Virus record (IMG/VR): IMGVR_UViG_2563366807_000007
Span: 1-23,490 of that record
Strand: one strand, 5' to 3'
From: a virus
Taxonomy: Duplodnaviria; Heunggongvirae; Uroviricota; Caudoviricetes
Length of the DNA stretch: 23,490 nt
Positions 132-5,773 of this stretch are shown here, piece by piece. Below the pieces are notes generated by a model. The model worked only from the letters and a program-made list of their open reading frames with translations. It did no database searches and was not told the origin of the DNA. The position numbers and the translations under genes are program-made. The stretch's first letter is position 1, and every line of letters starts with the position of its first letter.

Positions 132-746
132 GTGATGAATAAAAAATATGAACTGGTTGTTAAGGGGATAAATAATTACGGGGATAAGGTTACTGTTACT
201 GTGAAGTCGGAAGGTGACGGGCAAGCGTCGCTGTTGTTGCCAGATGTGGCGATTAGTCTTGACCGTACTGAAGGTGCCACGCTGGAGTTTTACGAAGCTG
301 AGGCGAAAAAGCAGGCGAAGCAGTTTTTCATGGATGTTGCTGCCGGGTTATGTGAATGGAACGAACCGTTGCCGGAAAAGCGCCCCGTAATTTTAGAGGC
401 GCAGGATGTGTTGATAACCTACAAAGGAAAGCTACCGGGAAGAATTACTTGTTCTCTGAAGATGCCGCCGTCAACACTGCGGTCAGAAAAAGATGATGTT
501 GAATCACGTATTGAAAAACTGGAGAGCTACGTCGTTGAGCTGAATAAGAAATGGTCGATATTGGTGCCTTCTGGCGATGAAAAGCAGTTTGCTGCGTTTG
601 ACGATTATTGTCGGAAAGTGATGAGCAGAAATCTCGCAGAGTGTTTCAGTATTCATAATGATAATTTCAGTGACCCGGAATGGGAGTGTAACCGGCCATC
701 CTTTGTTGTATCCGGTGATGCGTATTACCGTGAAGGAGATCGGTGA
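132..746 (+). CDS. Hypothetical protein between holin and endolysin; 3' end interrupted by the IS21-family insertion (last few codons and the stop are IS-derived)
   Basis: 204-codon ORF from the track with a GTG/ATG start at 132/135 overlapping the holin stop. No recognisable motif. The left end of the IS (about 731) falls inside the last codons, so the native C-terminus is missing. Confidence 0.5.
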   Translation: MMNKKYELVVKGINNYGDKVTVTVKSEGDGQASLLLPDVAISLDRTEGATLEFYEAEAKKQAKQFFMDVAAGLCEWNEPLPEKRPVILEAQDVLITYKGKLPGRITCSLKMPPSTLRSEKDDVESRIEKLESYVVELNKKWSILVPSGDEKQFAAFDDYCRKVMSRNLAECFSIHNDNFSDPEWECNRPSFVVSGDAYYREGDR

Positions 747-803
747 GTAACATCGATGGAGATCGGTTCGTGTCACTTTCACAGAACCGTTTTTAAATTA
801 CCT

Positions 804-1553
804 TCACTGATCTCCTTCGGTCAACGGAGATTGTATTTTCCGCATTGATTCTCCTTTAAGTTCGATCTTGATACTGCCATGAACCAGTCGATCTAGGATG
901 GCATCCGCATGTGTGGAGTCTCCGATCATTTTGTACCAGTTTTCCACCGGCAACTGGCTCACTACGATGATTGAGCCTCGTTGGTACATCAGATCCACTA
1001 TTTCCAGCAGGTCGCTACGCTGTTCTGATGAGAGAGGTTCCAGCCCCCAGTCATCCAGAAGCAGCAGATCGCTATTATTCAGCCTGGTCAAAAGTTTGCT
1101 GTATCTTCCATCAGCATGCCCCTGATAGCACTGTTCCATCAGCGCTTTAAGGCGATAATAGTAGACCTTGTATCCCTGTCGGCAGGCATTATGACCAAGT
1201 GCACATGCCAGGAACGTTTTACCGCTGCCGGTGGCCCCGGTCAGTAAAATATTTTGTTTCAGGGTTAACCAGTTTCCCTGACTGAGTGAACGGATGAGGG
1301 CCCTGTCCAGCCCTCTATTGTTACGATAATCCAGCTTTGATAACTCAGCATTAAGTCTGAACCGTGCATGTTTGATCAGACGCTCTGCCTTCCTGTTTTC
1401 ACGGCAGGTTAGTTCTTCTGCTGTCAGTAATGACAGGCGTTCTTCGAAGCCCAGCTCCTGGTATGTGCCCGGTTGAGCAAGTTGCTTTTTAAGCGCATCA
1501 CGGAAGCCGGTGAGTTTAAGTGCGGTCAGTTGTTCGTAAAGATGATTCATCAT
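804..1553 (-). CDS. istB: IS21-family helper ATPase IstB
   Basis: 249 aa. Walker A LLTGATGSGKTF and Walker B LLLLDDWG, with the overall IstB/DnaC-like AAA+ layout. Lies immediately downstream of istA on the same strand. Confidence 0.9.
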   Translation of the reverse strand: MMNHLYEQLTALKLTGFRDALKKQLAQPGTYQELGFEERLSLLTAEELTCRENRKAERLIKHARFRLNAELSKLDYRNNRGLDRALIRSLSQGNWLTLKQNILLTGATGSGKTFLACALGHNACRQGYKVYYYRLKALMEQCYQGHADGRYSKLLTRLNNSDLLLLDDWGLEPLSSEQRSDLLEIVDLMYQRGSIIVVSQLPVENWYKMIGDSTHADAILDRLVHGSIKIELKGESMRKIQSPLTEGDQ

Positions 1554-1564
1554 TGGATCCCGTA

Positions 1565-3106
1565 TCAGTGGTAATACTCACTGCCGCGTACGTTTTCGTG
1601 TTCCATCGTGGATAACAGATCTGGTTTTGGATCCTGAACAGGTTGTTTATCCAGACCTTTTTCCAGGATCGATTTAATACCTGACAGACGCCATACCTTT
1701 GTTTTCAGAGCTCTTGCACATGCTGCATTAAGTCTGGCTTTACTGTATTTTTTATGAAGGTTCAGGAGTCCAAGGCAGAAGCGATAGCTTTGTTCCGGAT
1801 GTGGACGAGAGTTCAGTATATGAAGCACATAACTATGAGTTTCACTGCCTATGTGCCCCGCCCATTCCAGAAGACGCTCTGGCGTCCAGGTGGCATGCTG
1901 TCGATGAGCTTCAGGCATGTGCTCGTTGCGGGTACTGTAGCCATAAGTACGCTTGCGCGGGTGCACAGCAACCTCCTGCCCCTGATTGAAGAGTCTTACC
2001 AGTTCTCCGGAGATCCATGCTTCCAGTTGCTGGCCTAACAGCGAACATGGAACCGAGTAGTAATGTTTGTCGATTTCCACGTGGTAATCGGCATGAACTC
2101 TGACTTTCTTCACCAGGGTGTAACTGTAACTGGCTTCAGGAAGAGGCTTCAGTGCGGGTTTATCAAGCTGGATGAAGAGTTCTGCACGTGAATAACCCAA
2201 CTTCTGCATTATTTTGTTATTCAGTCTTTCCAGCAACTCCCGAATGCGCTGATTAAGCGATGCAAGGCTGTAGAAGATCTCATGCCTGATTCGGGCCATG
2301 ATCCAGCGTTCAACAACCTGAACGCCAACTTCAGCTTTGGCTTTATCTTTCGGTTTACGTGGCCGCGCAGGCAAAACTGCGACATTATAATGCTCAAGCA
2401 TCTGCTGGTAGGTAGGGTTAACGTCAGGATCATACTTACATGCCCTGGATGTGGCGCTTTTCAGATTGTCCGGAACAACAAGTTCAGGAACGCCACCCAA
2501 CCACTGGAAGCAGCGAACATGACTCATCACCCAGTCTTCAAGCTGCTGAGACCAGGTGGCCTCTGCCCATGTGTAACTTGATGCCCCGAGAACAGCTACG
2601 ATGACCTGAGCAGTTCTTATTTCTCCGGTCTCAGGGTCGGTAACGCCAACGGTAGGTCCACAGTAATCAACGAAAAGTTTTTCGCCAGCTTTATGTACCT
2701 GACGCATTGATGGTGAAGTGGTTTTGAGCCATTCACGGTACATCCGGCAGTAATGGTTATAGCTGTAAAAACCGCCTGGATTACGCTCACAGTATTCTTC
2801 CCAGAGTAGCTGCAGCGTCACGCATTTATTACGCAGTTCCCGGTGTACTGTAGCCCAGTCAGGCAGAGAGTGCTTCTTCATCTTAACCTGGGTCTGAAGG
2901 AACGCATGTTTTAGTTTTGTATCATCCCATCCTGTAGGTAAGGGCCACTGCTTTATGCCAAGTTGAGCCGCCCGATTAGCATATCTGGATACAACGGAAG
3001 GGGAGATTGCAAGACTACGACCAATTTGTCGATGGCTGAGTCCAACACCGTATTTAAGCCTAAGAATTTCTTTAAGTTTTCTCATAGAAATTGGAACTGT
3101 TGGCAT
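1565..3106 (-). CDS. istA: IS21-family transposase IstA
   Basis: 513 aa. N-terminal helix-turn-helix (LSHRQIGRSLAISPSVVSRYANRA) followed by a large integrase/DDE-type catalytic region. Gene order istA then istB is typical of the IS21 family. Confidence 0.9.
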   Translation of the reverse strand: MPTVPISMRKLKEILRLKYGVGLSHRQIGRSLAISPSVVSRYANRAAQLGIKQWPLPTGWDDTKLKHAFLQTQVKMKKHSLPDWATVHRELRNKCVTLQLLWEEYCERNPGGFYSYNHYCRMYREWLKTTSPSMRQVHKAGEKLFVDYCGPTVGVTDPETGEIRTAQVIVAVLGASSYTWAEATWSQQLEDWVMSHVRCFQWLGGVPELVVPDNLKSATSRACKYDPDVNPTYQQMLEHYNVAVLPARPRKPKDKAKAEVGVQVVERWIMARIRHEIFYSLASLNQRIRELLERLNNKIMQKLGYSRAELFIQLDKPALKPLPEASYSYTLVKKVRVHADYHVEIDKHYYSVPCSLLGQQLEAWISGELVRLFNQGQEVAVHPRKRTYGYSTRNEHMPEAHRQHATWTPERLLEWAGHIGSETHSYVLHILNSRPHPEQSYRFCLGLLNLHKKYSKARLNAACARALKTKVWRLSGIKSILEKGLDKQPVQDPKPDLLSTMEHENVRGSEYYH

Positions 3107-3290
3107 AGGTATCCTTTACCGGAATGGCAAAAGATACAGATCAACACACCTGTGAAGTTCCAATAACATTGATGGAGATCACTGAATAACAAAATGAGTC
3201 AAAAGTGATCTCCATCGATGTTATTCAGCGATCTGTTCAAATGTTATTACCCGATCTCGATGGAAGTTATTGAGTGATCTCCTTTCATGA

Positions 3291-3611
3291 AAATACGCAG
3301 GTGATGCTGGGAAAATAACCATCTCAGAAAATGGGAAAGTAACACCTCCATCGCACCAGCACAGTGAGGAGCTCATTGAATTTGCCATTGATTACCTGAA
3401 GAACAATAAAAAGCAGGGGCTGATGAAGCGCGTTGGCCGTTGCATGGGATATCTTCAGGTAGCCGCTGAGATTGAAGCGCTGGCCAGTGGTGCTGATAAG
3501 GATGCAATTGTGCGGGAGGCTCTTCTTCGTGATTTTAATACTCCACCCTTTAAAAAAGGGCCGGCTTACTGGCTTCATCCGGGGCTGACTTATCTTAAAG
3601 TGCGTATTTAG
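3291..3611 (+). pseudogene. 3' gene fragment to the right of the IS, possibly the C-terminal remainder of the gene at 132..746
   Basis: The frame is open from the IS right flank (KYAGDAGKITISENGK...) to the stop TAG at 3609-3611, with no start codon or RBS at its 5' end. It is in the same frame register (mod 3) as the ORF at 132..746. Alternatively a 62-aa ORF could start at ATG 3423. Confidence 0.35.
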
Positions 3612-3647
3612 TGGGCCAGGGACAGCGGCTGAATATTTAATATATCC

Positions 3648-4181
3648 ATGAACACCAAAATCAAATACGGCCTGTCGGCTGCCGTTCTGGCGCTGATTGC
3701 CGCTGGTGCGCCTGCGCCTGACATTCTCGACCAGTTTCTGGATGAAAAGGAAGGCAACCACACCACGGCATACCGTGATGGTGCAGGTATCTGGACCATC
3801 TGCCGTGGTGCCATCATGGTGGATGGCAAACCTGTCGTTCCGGGCATGAAGTTGTCGAAGGAAAAATGCGACCAGGTTAACGCCATTGAGCGTGATAAAG
3901 CGCTGGCGTGGGTGGAGAAAAACATCAGAGTGCCGCTGACCGAACCCCAGAAAGCGGGGATCGCGTCATTCTGTCCGTACAACATTGGTCCCGGTAAGTG
4001 TTTCCCGTCGACGTTTTACAGACGAATTAATGCTGGTGATCGAAAAGGTGCCTGCGAAGCGATTCGCTGGTGGATTAAGGACGGTGGCAGAGACTGCCGT
4101 ATTCGTTCAAACAACTGTTACGGTCAGGTATCCCGTCGTGACCAGGAGAGCGCGCTGGCGTGCTGGGGTATCGACAGATAA
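3648..4181 (+). CDS. R: SAR endolysin (phage lysozyme, T4/P21 R-type, glycoside hydrolase family 24)
   Basis: 177 aa. N-terminal Gly/Ala-rich weakly hydrophobic signal-anchor-release segment (GLSAAVLALIAAGAPAP). Catalytic spacing E35-8aa-D44-5aa-T50 (EGNHTTAYRDGAGIWT), as in phage 21 R and E. coli prophage RrrD/RrrQ lysozymes. Confidence 0.9.
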   Translation: MNTKIKYGLSAAVLALIAAGAPAPDILDQFLDEKEGNHTTAYRDGAGIWTICRGAIMVDGKPVVPGMKLSKEKCDQVNAIERDKALAWVEKNIRVPLTEPQKAGIASFCPYNIGPGKCFPSTFYRRINAGDRKGACEAIRWWIKDGGRDCRIRSNNCYGQVSRRDQESALACWGIDR

Positions 4182-4337
4182 GCAGAATATTTTGCTGAAA
4201 AATGAGGAATGGCCACGCGGGCGGATAACACGAAATCCTGCGAACTGGCGAAACGTAAGTGAATAAAAGTAAAAACCCCGTTTGTTGGCACCAAGCGAGG
4301 TTTTGTGTTTCTGACCTTGAGTAAGGCAAGGGAGAAC

Positions 4338-4520
4338 ATGGCGAAGTGTAAACGAATTCTGTTGAGGTTGACTATGAAAAATGGCCTTGAACTGAAAGCG
4401 CCTGTAACTGATGACATCAGCAGAGCACTGGCTTTTGCCATTAAGTGGGTGGCGGTCGGTGTTGCTGTGTCCCCGATGCTGTATGGGCTGGCAAAACTGG
4501 TCATTGCGTTGAAATCGTGA
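4338..4520 (+). CDS. Small predicted membrane protein (60 aa), unknown function
   Basis: ATG at 4338 preceded by AGGGAG. Basic N-terminus ([14 protein letters not shown]) and hydrophobic C-terminal helix ([28 protein letters not shown]). Its stop codon overlaps the RBS of the next ORF. Confidence 0.4.
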
Positions 4521-4534
4521 AGGGAGGATTAAGC

Positions 4535-4666
4535 ATGTCAGACAAACTCATAACGCTGGCGAAGATCCTCTGTGTAATTGTCGGCATTTCATTTTCACTA
4601 ATGCTGGTTGCTCTTTTTCTTTCCATGGCCTGGATGATGTTGTCTTCGTCGGGGTTGCTGGGGTGA
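4535..4666 (+). CDS. Small hydrophobic protein (43 aa), unknown function
   Basis: Strong RBS AAGGGAGGA 7 nt upstream of ATG 4535. Sequence [43 protein letters not shown] is almost entirely transmembrane. Its stop TGA (4664-4666) overlaps the possible GTG start of Rz. Confidence 0.4.
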
Positions 4667-5136
4667 ACATAAACCGAATGCTTTCCGCGTTTATCGTTAT
4701 TCTGCTGGTGGCCTGTGGTGCGCTGTGGATGGCAACAGACCATTACCGTGATAACGCGATTACCTACAAAGCGCAGCGCGATAACAAAGCCAGTGAACTG
4801 AAGCTGGCGAACGCAACCATTACTGATATGCAGGTGCGCCAGCGCGATGTTGCTGCGCTCGATGCAAAATACTCGAGGGAATTAGCCGATGCGAGAGCTG
4901 AAAATGAAACTCTTCGCGCTGACGTTGCCGCTGGTCGTAAGCGCCTGCGGATCAACGCCACCTGTCCAGGCTCCGTGCGTGAAGCCCCCACCACCTCCGG
5001 CGTGGATAATGCAACCGGCCCCCAACTGGCAGACACCGTTACACGGGATTATTTCACCCTCAGAGAGCGGCTGATGACGATGCACAAGCAACTGGAAGGG
5101 GCACAGGACTATATCCGCACTCAGTGCCTGAAATAA
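4663..5136 (+). CDS. Rz: Rz i-spanin (inner-membrane spanin subunit)
   Basis: N-terminal TM segment then [44 protein letters not shown] and a C-terminal [18 protein letters not shown] region, matching lambda Rz as I recall it. Start is either GTG 4663 or ATG 4678. Confidence 0.9.
4889..5074 (+). CDS. Rz1: Rz1 o-spanin (outer-membrane lipoprotein), embedded in the +1 frame of Rz
   Basis: Lipoprotein signal with lipobox LVVSAC, followed by the proline-rich stretch [22 protein letters not shown], nearly identical to lambda Rz1. Lies wholly within Rz in a different frame; an alternative start is ATG 4904. Confidence 0.8.
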
Positions 5137-5446
5137 GTTTTGTTGATGCGCCGTATCGTCGCTATATTCCCTCATTAACAGAGACCGCAGCCCGACAGGG
5201 AGACTCCTCTGCGCGAGTGTGCGGGGATAATTAAAAACGATGCACACCGGGTTTTTACCGCGTTAATGATTCGCGGGTTTATCCCGGTGCGATGGTGGAA
5301 GAAACAGGAAGCTGTATTACAGAAAGTGCTACTACTGTATCCCGATGCGATGTATGTAATGTGAGTCAGATAATGGCACAGGATGTGGTGATGTGGCAGT
5401 CTGGAACACAGGATATATTGTCAGAATAAGACCCGTAGGAATAAAA

Positions 5447-5773
5447 ATGAAAAGACGCCTTTTACTACTTTTTCTGTTATCTGTCCTGGCAGTGGGATGC
5501 TCGCAGCAAAAAGCTGATGAGCCCCGGCAATTAGTGACGGTGTATCCACGATATCCGGAATATGCTGCAGCAAATTATATCAAGGGGCTGGTTGAGGTTA
5601 AGTTCGATATTGGTGCTGATGGGACTGTGACACGGATCGTTTTTCTCCGCTCAGAGCCTCATAATTTGTTTCGTGATGAAGTGGTGAAGGCCATGGCGAA
5701 ATGGCGATTTGAAAAGAATCGCCCCTGTCAGGGAGTGAAGAGACAATTTATCTTTACGCCGTCACGTCCTTGA
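5447..5773 (+). CDS. Lipoprotein with a TonB C-terminal-like domain (moron)
   Basis: 108 aa. Signal peptide MKRRLLLLFLLSVLAVGC with lipobox AVGC and Ser at +2. The remainder (YPEYAAANYIKGLVEVKFDIGADGTVTRIVFLRSEPHNLFRDEVVKAMAKWRFEKNRP) aligns motif by motif with the E. coli TonB C-terminal domain ([11 protein letters not shown]..DGRV....[24 protein letters not shown]). Confidence 0.7.
   Translation: MKRRLLLLFLLSVLAVGCSQQKADEPRQLVTVYPRYPEYAAANYIKGLVEVKFDIGADGTVTRIVFLRSEPHNLFRDEVVKAMAKWRFEKNRPCQGVKRQFIFTPSRP

Follow-up and report, generated by a model that had tools for sequence, protein, structure and literature searches.

Two conserved small membrane-protein genes between the endolysin and spanin genes of a lambdoid prophage as candidate accessory factors of lysis

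Gene Organization of the Lysis Cassette

The stretch of DNA analyzed here (IMG/VR record IMGVR_UViG_2563366807_000007; 23,490 nucleotides in its whole length, hereafter the window) is the late region of a lambdoid prophage of Escherichia coli, and the subject of this study is a pair of small open reading frames (ORFs), ORF1 and ORF2, located between the endolysin gene R and the spanin gene Rz of its lysis cassette. All the cassette features described below are on the plus strand. R (3648-4181) encodes a 177-aa lysozyme (Pfam Phage_lysozyme, E=2.4e-24; named "lysozyme" by PGAP in an identical prophage), with an N-terminus of the signal-anchor-release (SAR) type that is weakly hydrophobic (mean Kyte-Doolittle (KD) value 1.74; crude summed Hessa value +3.2). 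It is followed by a 3′ untranslated segment common to Shiga toxin (Stx) phages (4182-4270), which contains a hairpin at 4217-4241, and by an intrinsic-terminator-like hairpin detected in a terminator scan (4271-4310). ORF1 (4338-4520; 60 aa; PHROG 1115/4493/3246) and ORF2 (4535-4666; 43 aa; PHROG 4906), which are listed in RefSeq as the hypothetical proteins WP_001446668.1 and WP_001280932.1, respectively, come next. The cassette is completed by the i-spanin gene Rz (4663-5136, with its start at GTG 4663 or ATG 4678; Pfam Phage_lysis, E=1.8e-47) and, inside Rz, the gene of the o-spanin lipoprotein Rz1 (4889-5074; Pfam Rz1, E=4.4e-20), both of which are lambda-type spanins.

The gap between R and Rz measures 496 nt and is filled by ORF1 and ORF2, with ~155 nt from R to ORF1. 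An earlier note on this DNA had described both ORFs, and its coordinates proved exact. The ribosome-binding site of ORF1 is AAGGGAG at 4328-4334, and that of ORF2 is GGGAGG at 4522-4527, one base past the ORF1 stop (4518-4520) and 8 nt before the ORF2 ATG. ORF1, ORF2 and Rz are tightly packed in this order, with 14 nt and then ≤11 nt between the genes. The overlap of the ORF2 stop (4664-4666) with the Rz start, which the earlier note had also reported, holds only for the GTG at 4663, and is lost with the start chosen by PGAP (ATG 4678), which lies 11 nt past the ORF2 stop. A comparison of this junction revealed that the GTG start is not conserved or usable in the 933W-type phages, and a Shine-Dalgarno-like purine run belonging to Rz itself is present in these phages.

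Coding Evidence for ORF1 and ORF2

The sequence comparisons indicate that ORF1 and ORF2 are genuine small membrane-protein genes. The in-frame ratio of nonsynonymous to synonymous substitution rates (dN/dS) of ORF1 against diverged copies ranges from 0.12 to 0.41, with an excess of third-position changes (25/38 differences in the best comparison, P=4e-5), while diverged pairs of ORF2 gave dN/dS values of 0.24-0.5 and carry in-frame indels only. Purifying selection is confined to the named frame, the ratio in the shifted frames being about 1 or more. Several genomic contexts preserve both ORFs in frame, start and stop, at 65-100% amino-acid identity. The length, stop position and hydrophobic character of ORF2 were maintained over 14 nucleotide variants and 252 protein clusters, with the same stop position in 13 of the 14 nucleotide variants, the exception being a copy from a cassette with an M15 peptidase, which is one codon longer. 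The start of ORF2 either has a Shine-Dalgarno sequence or overlaps the previous stop in three unrelated upstream contexts. The identical 496 nt are present in many E. coli chromosomes, in which PGAP annotates both ORFs as hypothetical, and coverage of this segment reaches at least 80% in 990 of the 5426 complete E. coli genomes (~18%). The conservation in related prophages, whose absence the earlier note had named as a refutation, was found, both ORFs being kept as proteins.

Features of the Encoded Proteins and Family Searches

ORF2 consists of little more than one strong transmembrane helix (about residues 8-30), with a mean KD value of 2.89 for residues 11-29 and a crude summed Hessa value of -3.8, in agreement with its previous description as almost wholly hydrophobic. 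Two lysines in the N-terminal part (K4 and K10) and a conserved tail of ~13 residues (AW..L.S.GL.G) suggest an N-in, C-out topology, and the C-terminus (...SGLLG) has no charged tail. ORF1 has a basic N-terminus, a conserved soluble motif, MKNGLE.(K/D)APVTD(D/E)IS, and a C-terminal hydrophobic helix with only 2 residues after it, and its C-terminus (...ALKS) is likewise without a charged tail. The C-terminal transmembrane helix previously assigned to ORF1 is present as a hydrophobic helix and falls short in strength, its mean KD of 1.88 and crude summed Hessa value of +3.7 being only SAR-like and similar to those of the SAR domain of R. The AlphaFold2 model of ORF1 places helices at residues 2-14 and 21-59 with modest confidence (mean pLDDT 75). 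A further start codon of the ORF1 frame lies at 4374 and has a GAGG of its own; it would yield a protein of 48 aa, and many database relatives begin there. The 60-aa and 48-aa forms differ by an N-terminal extension with a charge of +5, and the two predicted starts are reminiscent of dual-start holin/antiholin genes.

The only family membership recovered for both ORFs was in PHROGs without assigned function, with full-length profile matches of ORF1 to phrog_1115 (E=3.7e-42 over residues 1-60) and of ORF2 to phrog_4906 (E=2.1e-23 over residues 1-43). Sequence searches of Pfam, NCBIfam, PADLOC and PDB assigned neither ORF to a family; Pfam returned nothing for ORF1 and only a sub-threshold DUF3930 match for ORF2, no PADLOC defence model was matched by either ORF, and neither matched the holin families of Pfam and PHROG. 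The ORF1 family is tiny, as a profile search against 1.84 billion representatives retrieved 19 proteins, all of them small relatives, with no bridge to a known family by remote homology, and a scan of genome contigs with the ORF1 alignment gave no confirmed locus. The 252 protein clusters of the ORF2 family are nearly all from Escherichia. A paralogous relationship between ORF1 and ORF2 was rejected (hhalign probability of 4% over 13 columns), and so was an origin of ORF2 as a duplicated transmembrane anchor of Rz, BLASTP against Rz having produced no alignment.

Distribution and Arrangements in Other Phages

Substantial variation in the slot between the endolysin and spanin genes was observed among related phages and prophages. 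In the arrangement found in the window (R, 155 nt, ORF1, ORF2, Rz), the gap and the ORF order were identical in 77/86 loci, a count that is not unbiased, since the ORF2 family served as the query that brought in 80 of the 86 loci and the layout of the window is over-represented. Within the loci of this arrangement, the identity of R ranges from 88 to 100% and that of Rz from 58 to 100%, while ORF2 is essentially identical, and the near-constancy of ORF2 beside varying R and Rz marks ORF1-ORF2 as a discrete mosaic unit. A second arrangement (R, ant, ORF2, Rz) occurs in 933W, Min27, P8983, P13374, Ss-VASD and many other Stx phages, in which ORF2 is 48-50 aa in length, begins within the stop of ant (TGATG) and ends 8-16 nt before Rz. 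A spacing of 5-16 nt to Rz covers 933W, Min27, P8983 and others. ORF2 is unannotated in 933W and in most records of this arrangement. Overall, it was detectable in 276 phage records, against 706 that have this type of Rz (~40%), and the main Stx1 and Stx2 phages are among them.

In Salmonella, ORF1 without ORF2 is located 10-19 nt before Rz in three different cassettes. One combines holin_2_3 and a SAR lysozyme, another has a lysozyme and an Ant-like gene, and in the third a GH19 endolysin accompanies a class I holin. Where the holins are holin_8/holin_3_7, the gene ahead of ORF1-ORF2 encodes an M15 peptidase in Escherichia and a GH108 endolysin in Citrobacter. ORF2 also comes after a GH108 endolysin in a Cronobacter-labelled prophage, which lacks an intact ORF1. 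Downstream of ORF1/ORF2 in these holin_8/holin_3_7 cassettes, Rz is replaced by a conserved 60-aa prolipoprotein (L006, 2155-2337; L112, 2640-2822; L110, 2640-2822; L093, about 3340-3521 and frameshifted), and lambda-type Rz/Rz1 were not present in the stretches of this arrangement that were examined. The prolipoprotein has a lipobox of LLVGC or LPVGC and a Cys-rich mature part of 29 aa, and belongs to PHROG 7528, which has no assigned function. Genes resembling heat-labile enterotoxin type II (Pfam Enterotoxin_a, LT-IIB) were observed at 1-859 of L109-L111, directly upstream of the holin gene and in the position that stx occupies in Stx phages; the ORF2 protein of that prophage is the one labelled Cronobacter.

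Other small hydrophobic ORFs can hold the same slot, including a 45-aa "WKF..." type, with the pattern WKF(L/I)L(V/I)WL...ITAIKG, and "...RWW" types. PHROG 4493, which ORF1 matches, is also matched by two products of the RWW type, a 28-aa peptide from PhiR5_1 and a 57-aa protein of phiSTEC1575-Stx2k (L006). PhiR5_1 carries four small single-helix ORFs in tandem before Rz, and further small single-helix ORFs of the slot were located in L005 (1861-1998 and 2262-2349), L003 (about 3160-3296) and L104. In every examined R-Rz gap of more than 11 nt, the neighbor of Rz was a small hydrophobic ORF (ORF2, ORF1 or "...RWW") and never ant. The gap is absent in lambda, Qin, phi467 and phi458, in which R abuts Rz. 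The direct succession of R and Rz that was stated earlier for lambda-type cassettes holds for these four and does not extend to the Stx-phage group, in which a filled gap is the rule.

The order of the genes is swapped in some genomes, with ORF2 followed immediately by the C-terminal two-thirds of ORF1 (P0214, P0199 and P0217; L005, 2036-2251; L101). Gene callers yield chimeric "fusion" proteins from such copies through the +1 frame, and stop codons interrupt the ORF1-like part of the L101 copy. Active reshuffling of the module, and at times its decay, is evident from these copies.

The Region between R and ORF1 and the Expression of the ORFs

The segment from 4182 to 4270 is ~86% identical in Stx phages, whatever comes next. 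Its conserved hairpin at 4217-4241 has the loop AACACGAA, with a nearly invariant AACAC(G/A)AA, and the Salmonella copy forms a perfect 7-bp stem. This hairpin may represent an RNA element, or else belong to a small RNA that derives from the 3′ untranslated region and ends at the terminator. The small RNAs AgvB, AsxR and Pas were considered for the identity of this region and rejected, as they map upstream of the holin. Searches with Rfam models, covering the whole window and, in a permissive scan, 4100-4720, returned a single hit, between the terminator and the rimP leader, which is at the level of chance.

The hairpin at 4271-4310 consists of an A-run, a GC-rich stem of 9 bp (with one C.A mismatch in the window), a 7-nt loop and a T-run. 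With an A-run upstream and a T-run downstream, it looks bidirectional. Its stem is kept in eight sequence variants, with compensatory change at two pairs, and these changes span the copies from Escherichia, Salmonella and Citrobacter. The hairpin accompanies ORF1 into the M15 and GH108 cassettes, while the 933W-type phages have a different hairpin at this position. The same Shine-Dalgarno context (GCAAGGGAGAAC) invariably comes after the 4271-4310 hairpin, and one of several alternative small membrane ORFs after that, as if the hairpin acted as a "landing pad" for recombination.

Only 27 nt, holding the Shine-Dalgarno sequence, separate the T-run from the ATG of ORF1. A simple consensus search, which may miss weak or non-sigma-70 promoters, found no sigma-70-like site on either strand in 3500-5500, and a looser scan gave only 8/12 matches. 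Because the terminator lies 27 nt upstream and no promoter was found, ORF1, ORF2, Rz and Rz1 would be reached only by a Q-modified, terminator-resistant polymerase, and the expression of ORF1 and ORF2 probably depends on Q-antiterminated late transcription. Such anatomy would make them late genes rather than genes expressed in the lysogen.

Neighboring Features in the Window

An insertion sequence (IS) element of the IS21 family was located at 722-3299, between the holin/DUF1327 (YdfR-like) genes and R, and was defined by comparison with the otherwise 99.9% identical prophage of E. coli strain 7/2. It contains an istA-like gene (1565-3106, minus strand; rve and Mu-transpos_C_2 domains) and an istB-like gene (804-1553, minus strand; IstB_IS21), and is flanked by a target duplication of 8 bp (714-721 = 3300-3307). 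This insertion probably disrupts the expression of the late operon in this strain. Just past Rz/Rz1, the segment 5447-5773 encodes a lipoprotein with a TonB C-terminal domain (Pfam TonB_C, E=7e-13); the label "Rz-like spanin" that PHROGs gives to this family looks like a mis-annotation by position.

Proposed Role and Alternative Explanations

The placement of the ORFs suggests that ORF1-ORF2 is a portable module of lambdoid lysis cassettes. The earlier note had assigned them to the lysis cassette, and this is borne out by their relatives, which follow five endolysin types, usually directly before Rz, and which, in unrelated cassettes of Escherichia, Salmonella and Citrobacter (ORF2 alone in the Cronobacter-labelled prophage), repeatedly abut the spanin gene on the downstream side of the endolysin. 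We tentatively propose, with a little less than even confidence, that ORF1 and ORF2 are non-essential accessory factors of the inner membrane, made late, which tune the membrane steps of lysis. Besides this placement, their linkage to Rz, their apparently late-only expression and their membrane character favor the proposal, as do the precedents of P2 LysA, which has the corresponding position, and of Mu releasin (PMC9239132). Both would be produced together with R, Rz and Rz1 from the late operon, ORF2 as a stably inserted N-in anchor whose periplasmic tail is short and ORF1 as a marginal, SAR-like helix bearing a basic head in the cytoplasm, and in the inner membrane they would adjust the timing or efficiency of envelope disruption while being dispensable for it. 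The partners vary widely, with endolysins of five types, holins of at least four families, and either Rz/Rz1 or the 60-aa lipoprotein. For this reason, one particular holin would be a less likely target than the spanin step, a host factor or the membrane as such. A role as a holin-specific antiholin is unlikely, given that neither ORF has similarity to holins and that they occur with at least four holin families. A bolder version, in which ORF2, ORF1 and the interchangeable "...RWW" and 45-aa peptides together form an unrecognised class of small, spanin-adjacent lysis factors of the inner membrane, present in most Stx phages, acting at spanin-mediated fusion or membrane depolarisation and helping to set the timing of lysis and toxin release, is conceivable and leans towards the unlikely. 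No feature of the sequence points outside known lysis biology.

Several observations weigh against an accessory role in lysis. The ORFs show no co-variation with R, Rz or any one holin family, and the presence of 100% identical ORF2 next to Rz proteins of 58-100% identity argues against a specific protein partner. That R abuts Rz in lambda, Qin, phi467 and phi458 means that the ORFs are dispensable. In Salmonella, relatives of ORF1 with a different N-terminus are found after tail-fibre genes or beside DUF1353/hok-like cargo, and in one locus (L091) the relative is flanked by terminator hairpins, with no plus-strand promoter found there. As the IS21-family element splits the holin gene from R, the cassette of the window may not be expressed normally. 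The third-position signal of ORF2 is modest (P=0.04-0.3), and the limited reach of the promoter search counts here as well. The ORFs are not mentioned in the literature searched, which took in ribosome profiling of small genes in enterohaemorrhagic E. coli as well as surveys of spanins and of the lysis cassettes of Stx phages.

Part of this evidence speaks for the main rival explanation, according to which the ORFs are cargo ("moron") genes in a tolerated insertion site between R and Rz that serve in superinfection exclusion, in blocking DNA entry or in host fitness. The slot is highly mosaic, holding nothing, ant, ORF1, ORF2, the 45-aa ORF or "...RWW" ORFs in various combinations, and cargo would also fit the missing co-variation with R or Rz and the ORF1 relatives located after tail-fibre genes or next to hok-like/DUF1353 cargo, once with flanking terminators like a classic moron. 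We nevertheless regard it as unlikely, since no promoter was found in any context, the terminator is upstream of the genes instead of downstream, every lysis context shows tight coupling of the ORFs with Rz or with the gene before them, the placement after the endolysin recurs in unrelated cassettes of at least four genera, and no PADLOC defence model was matched. The coupling itself could be the function, with ribosomes that finish ORF2 (or ORF1 in Salmonella) reinitiating at Rz and thereby setting the dosage of the spanin, and with the peptide being of minor importance. In all the architectures, the stop of the small ORF does overlap the Rz start or precede it by 5-19 nt, and three or four unrelated small ORFs share that position; however, leaders of this kind would not account for the purifying selection or for conservation across genera that includes the periplasmic tail of ORF2 and the soluble motif of ORF1, the same ORFs are found where Rz does not follow, and Rz of the 933W-type phages has its own purine run, which makes this explanation improbable.

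A type I toxin-antitoxin system, in which ORF2 and/or ORF1 would be a membrane-depolarising toxin under the control of an antisense RNA, is very improbable. The size and hydrophobicity of ORF2 (43 aa; mean KD 2.89 over residues 11-29) are similar to those of such toxins, and the hairpin at 4271-4310, having an A-run on its other side, could end a minus-strand transcript too. Against this, the crude promoter scans gave no promoter-like site on the minus strand beyond the chance-level 8/12 matches, no antitoxin or toxin-leader family of Rfam was detected, neither ORF is similar to Hok/Gef or other toxin families of Pfam, and the ORFs are co-directional and coupled with the late genes. The small membrane toxin module that had been suggested earlier is not upheld by these results, given the lack, in these scans, of promoter-like sites on either strand and of an antisense RNA family, and the position of the ORFs as co-directional genes of the late operon. 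That the ORFs are spurious frames in a non-coding spacer is scarcely credible; they are short, and ORF2 is unannotated in many phage records, but the conserved frame, start and stop at 65-100% identity, the indels that are in-frame only and the dN/dS below 1 in the named frame alone all contradict it.

Significance

Lysis of Gram-negative hosts by phages is taught as a three-step programme of holin, endolysin and spanin, and the extra lysis regulators LysA of P2, releasin of Mu and RI of T4 have each uncovered new control logic. The conserved, translationally linked single-helix membrane proteins encoded directly before Rz represent a widespread, under-annotated and unstudied gene class. Should they have a role in lysis, a component would be added to a well-studied cassette, and any effect on the timing or efficiency of lysis would bear on the release of Shiga toxin, which depends on phage lysis. 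Should they be cargo, they would still be an example of small membrane proteins that are abundant and systematically under-annotated. As a kind of feature, accessory small membrane proteins of phage lysis cassettes are ordinary.

Comparison with Known Systems

Like the members of known spanin systems, ORF1 and ORF2 are adjacent and translationally linked to Rz, and ORF2 shares the predicted N-in single-transmembrane topology of an i-spanin anchor (PMC6139136). An i-spanin combines an N-terminal transmembrane domain with a long periplasmic coiled coil, and o-/u-spanins carry a lipobox Cys (PMC6139136). With ~13 residues beyond the membrane in ORF2 and 2 in ORF1, neither protein could span the periplasm, and both are without a lipobox. 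The Mu protein gp25, or "releasin" (DUF2730), is small, membrane-tethered and mostly cytoplasmic, and is encoded near the genes of the SAR endolysin and the spanins (PMC9239132). Its 99 aa comprise an N-terminal, N-out transmembrane domain followed by an acidic cytoplasmic domain of 73 aa, and it demonstrates that non-holin accessory membrane proteins can control the release of a SAR endolysin (PMC9239132). In contrast to releasin, ORF1 has the reverse order of domains and a basic head, and ORF2 has no soluble domain. ORF1 is, moreover, also paired with soluble endolysins of the M15, GH108 and GH19 types, and the Pfam scan gave no match of ORF1 or ORF2 to DUF2730 (PF10805).

Holins are recognized by a family match, or by one or more transmembrane domains together with a charged hydrophilic C-terminal domain and the formation of lethal holes. 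They differ from both ORFs, which match no holin family and whose C-termini have no charged hydrophilic tail. The dual-start antiholins, such as S107 of lambda and S21-71 of phage 21, are products of the holin gene itself, made from an upstream start and near-identical to the holin, whose triggering they delay. They resemble the predicted ORF1 and ORF2 proteins in being small, late and located in the inner membrane, and the two starts of ORF1 (4338/4374) likewise differ in N-terminal positive charge; however, ORF1 and ORF2 are separate genes downstream of R and are unrelated to holins, the holin gene of the window being upstream of R. The type I toxins (Hok/Gef, TisB, Ldr and Ibs) are also peptides of fewer than 60 aa with a single hydrophobic helix and are often found in prophages, whereas ORF1 and ORF2 are embedded in an operon, and neither a promoter of their own nor an antisense RNA nor a long folded leader was detected. 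A moron, in the sense reportedly given to the term by Juhala et al. in 2000, is a self-contained unit, bounded by a promoter of its own in front and a terminator behind, that is expressed from the prophage; the ORFs of the window have the terminator upstream, and crude scans found no promoter. Judged by these defining features, neither ORF qualifies as a dual-start antiholin, a releasin, a spanin, a holin or a type I toxin-antitoxin component.

By position, the closest parallel to ORF1 and ORF2 would be LysA of P2, a non-essential membrane protein of lysis timing that is encoded between the endolysin gene K and the spanin genes lysB/lysC. With a length of about 141 aa, LysA has several predicted transmembrane segments, whereas ORF1 and ORF2 have one hydrophobic segment each. 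The likeness between the two systems lies in the position between endolysin and spanin genes, in the membrane location and in the dispensability in the wider phage group.

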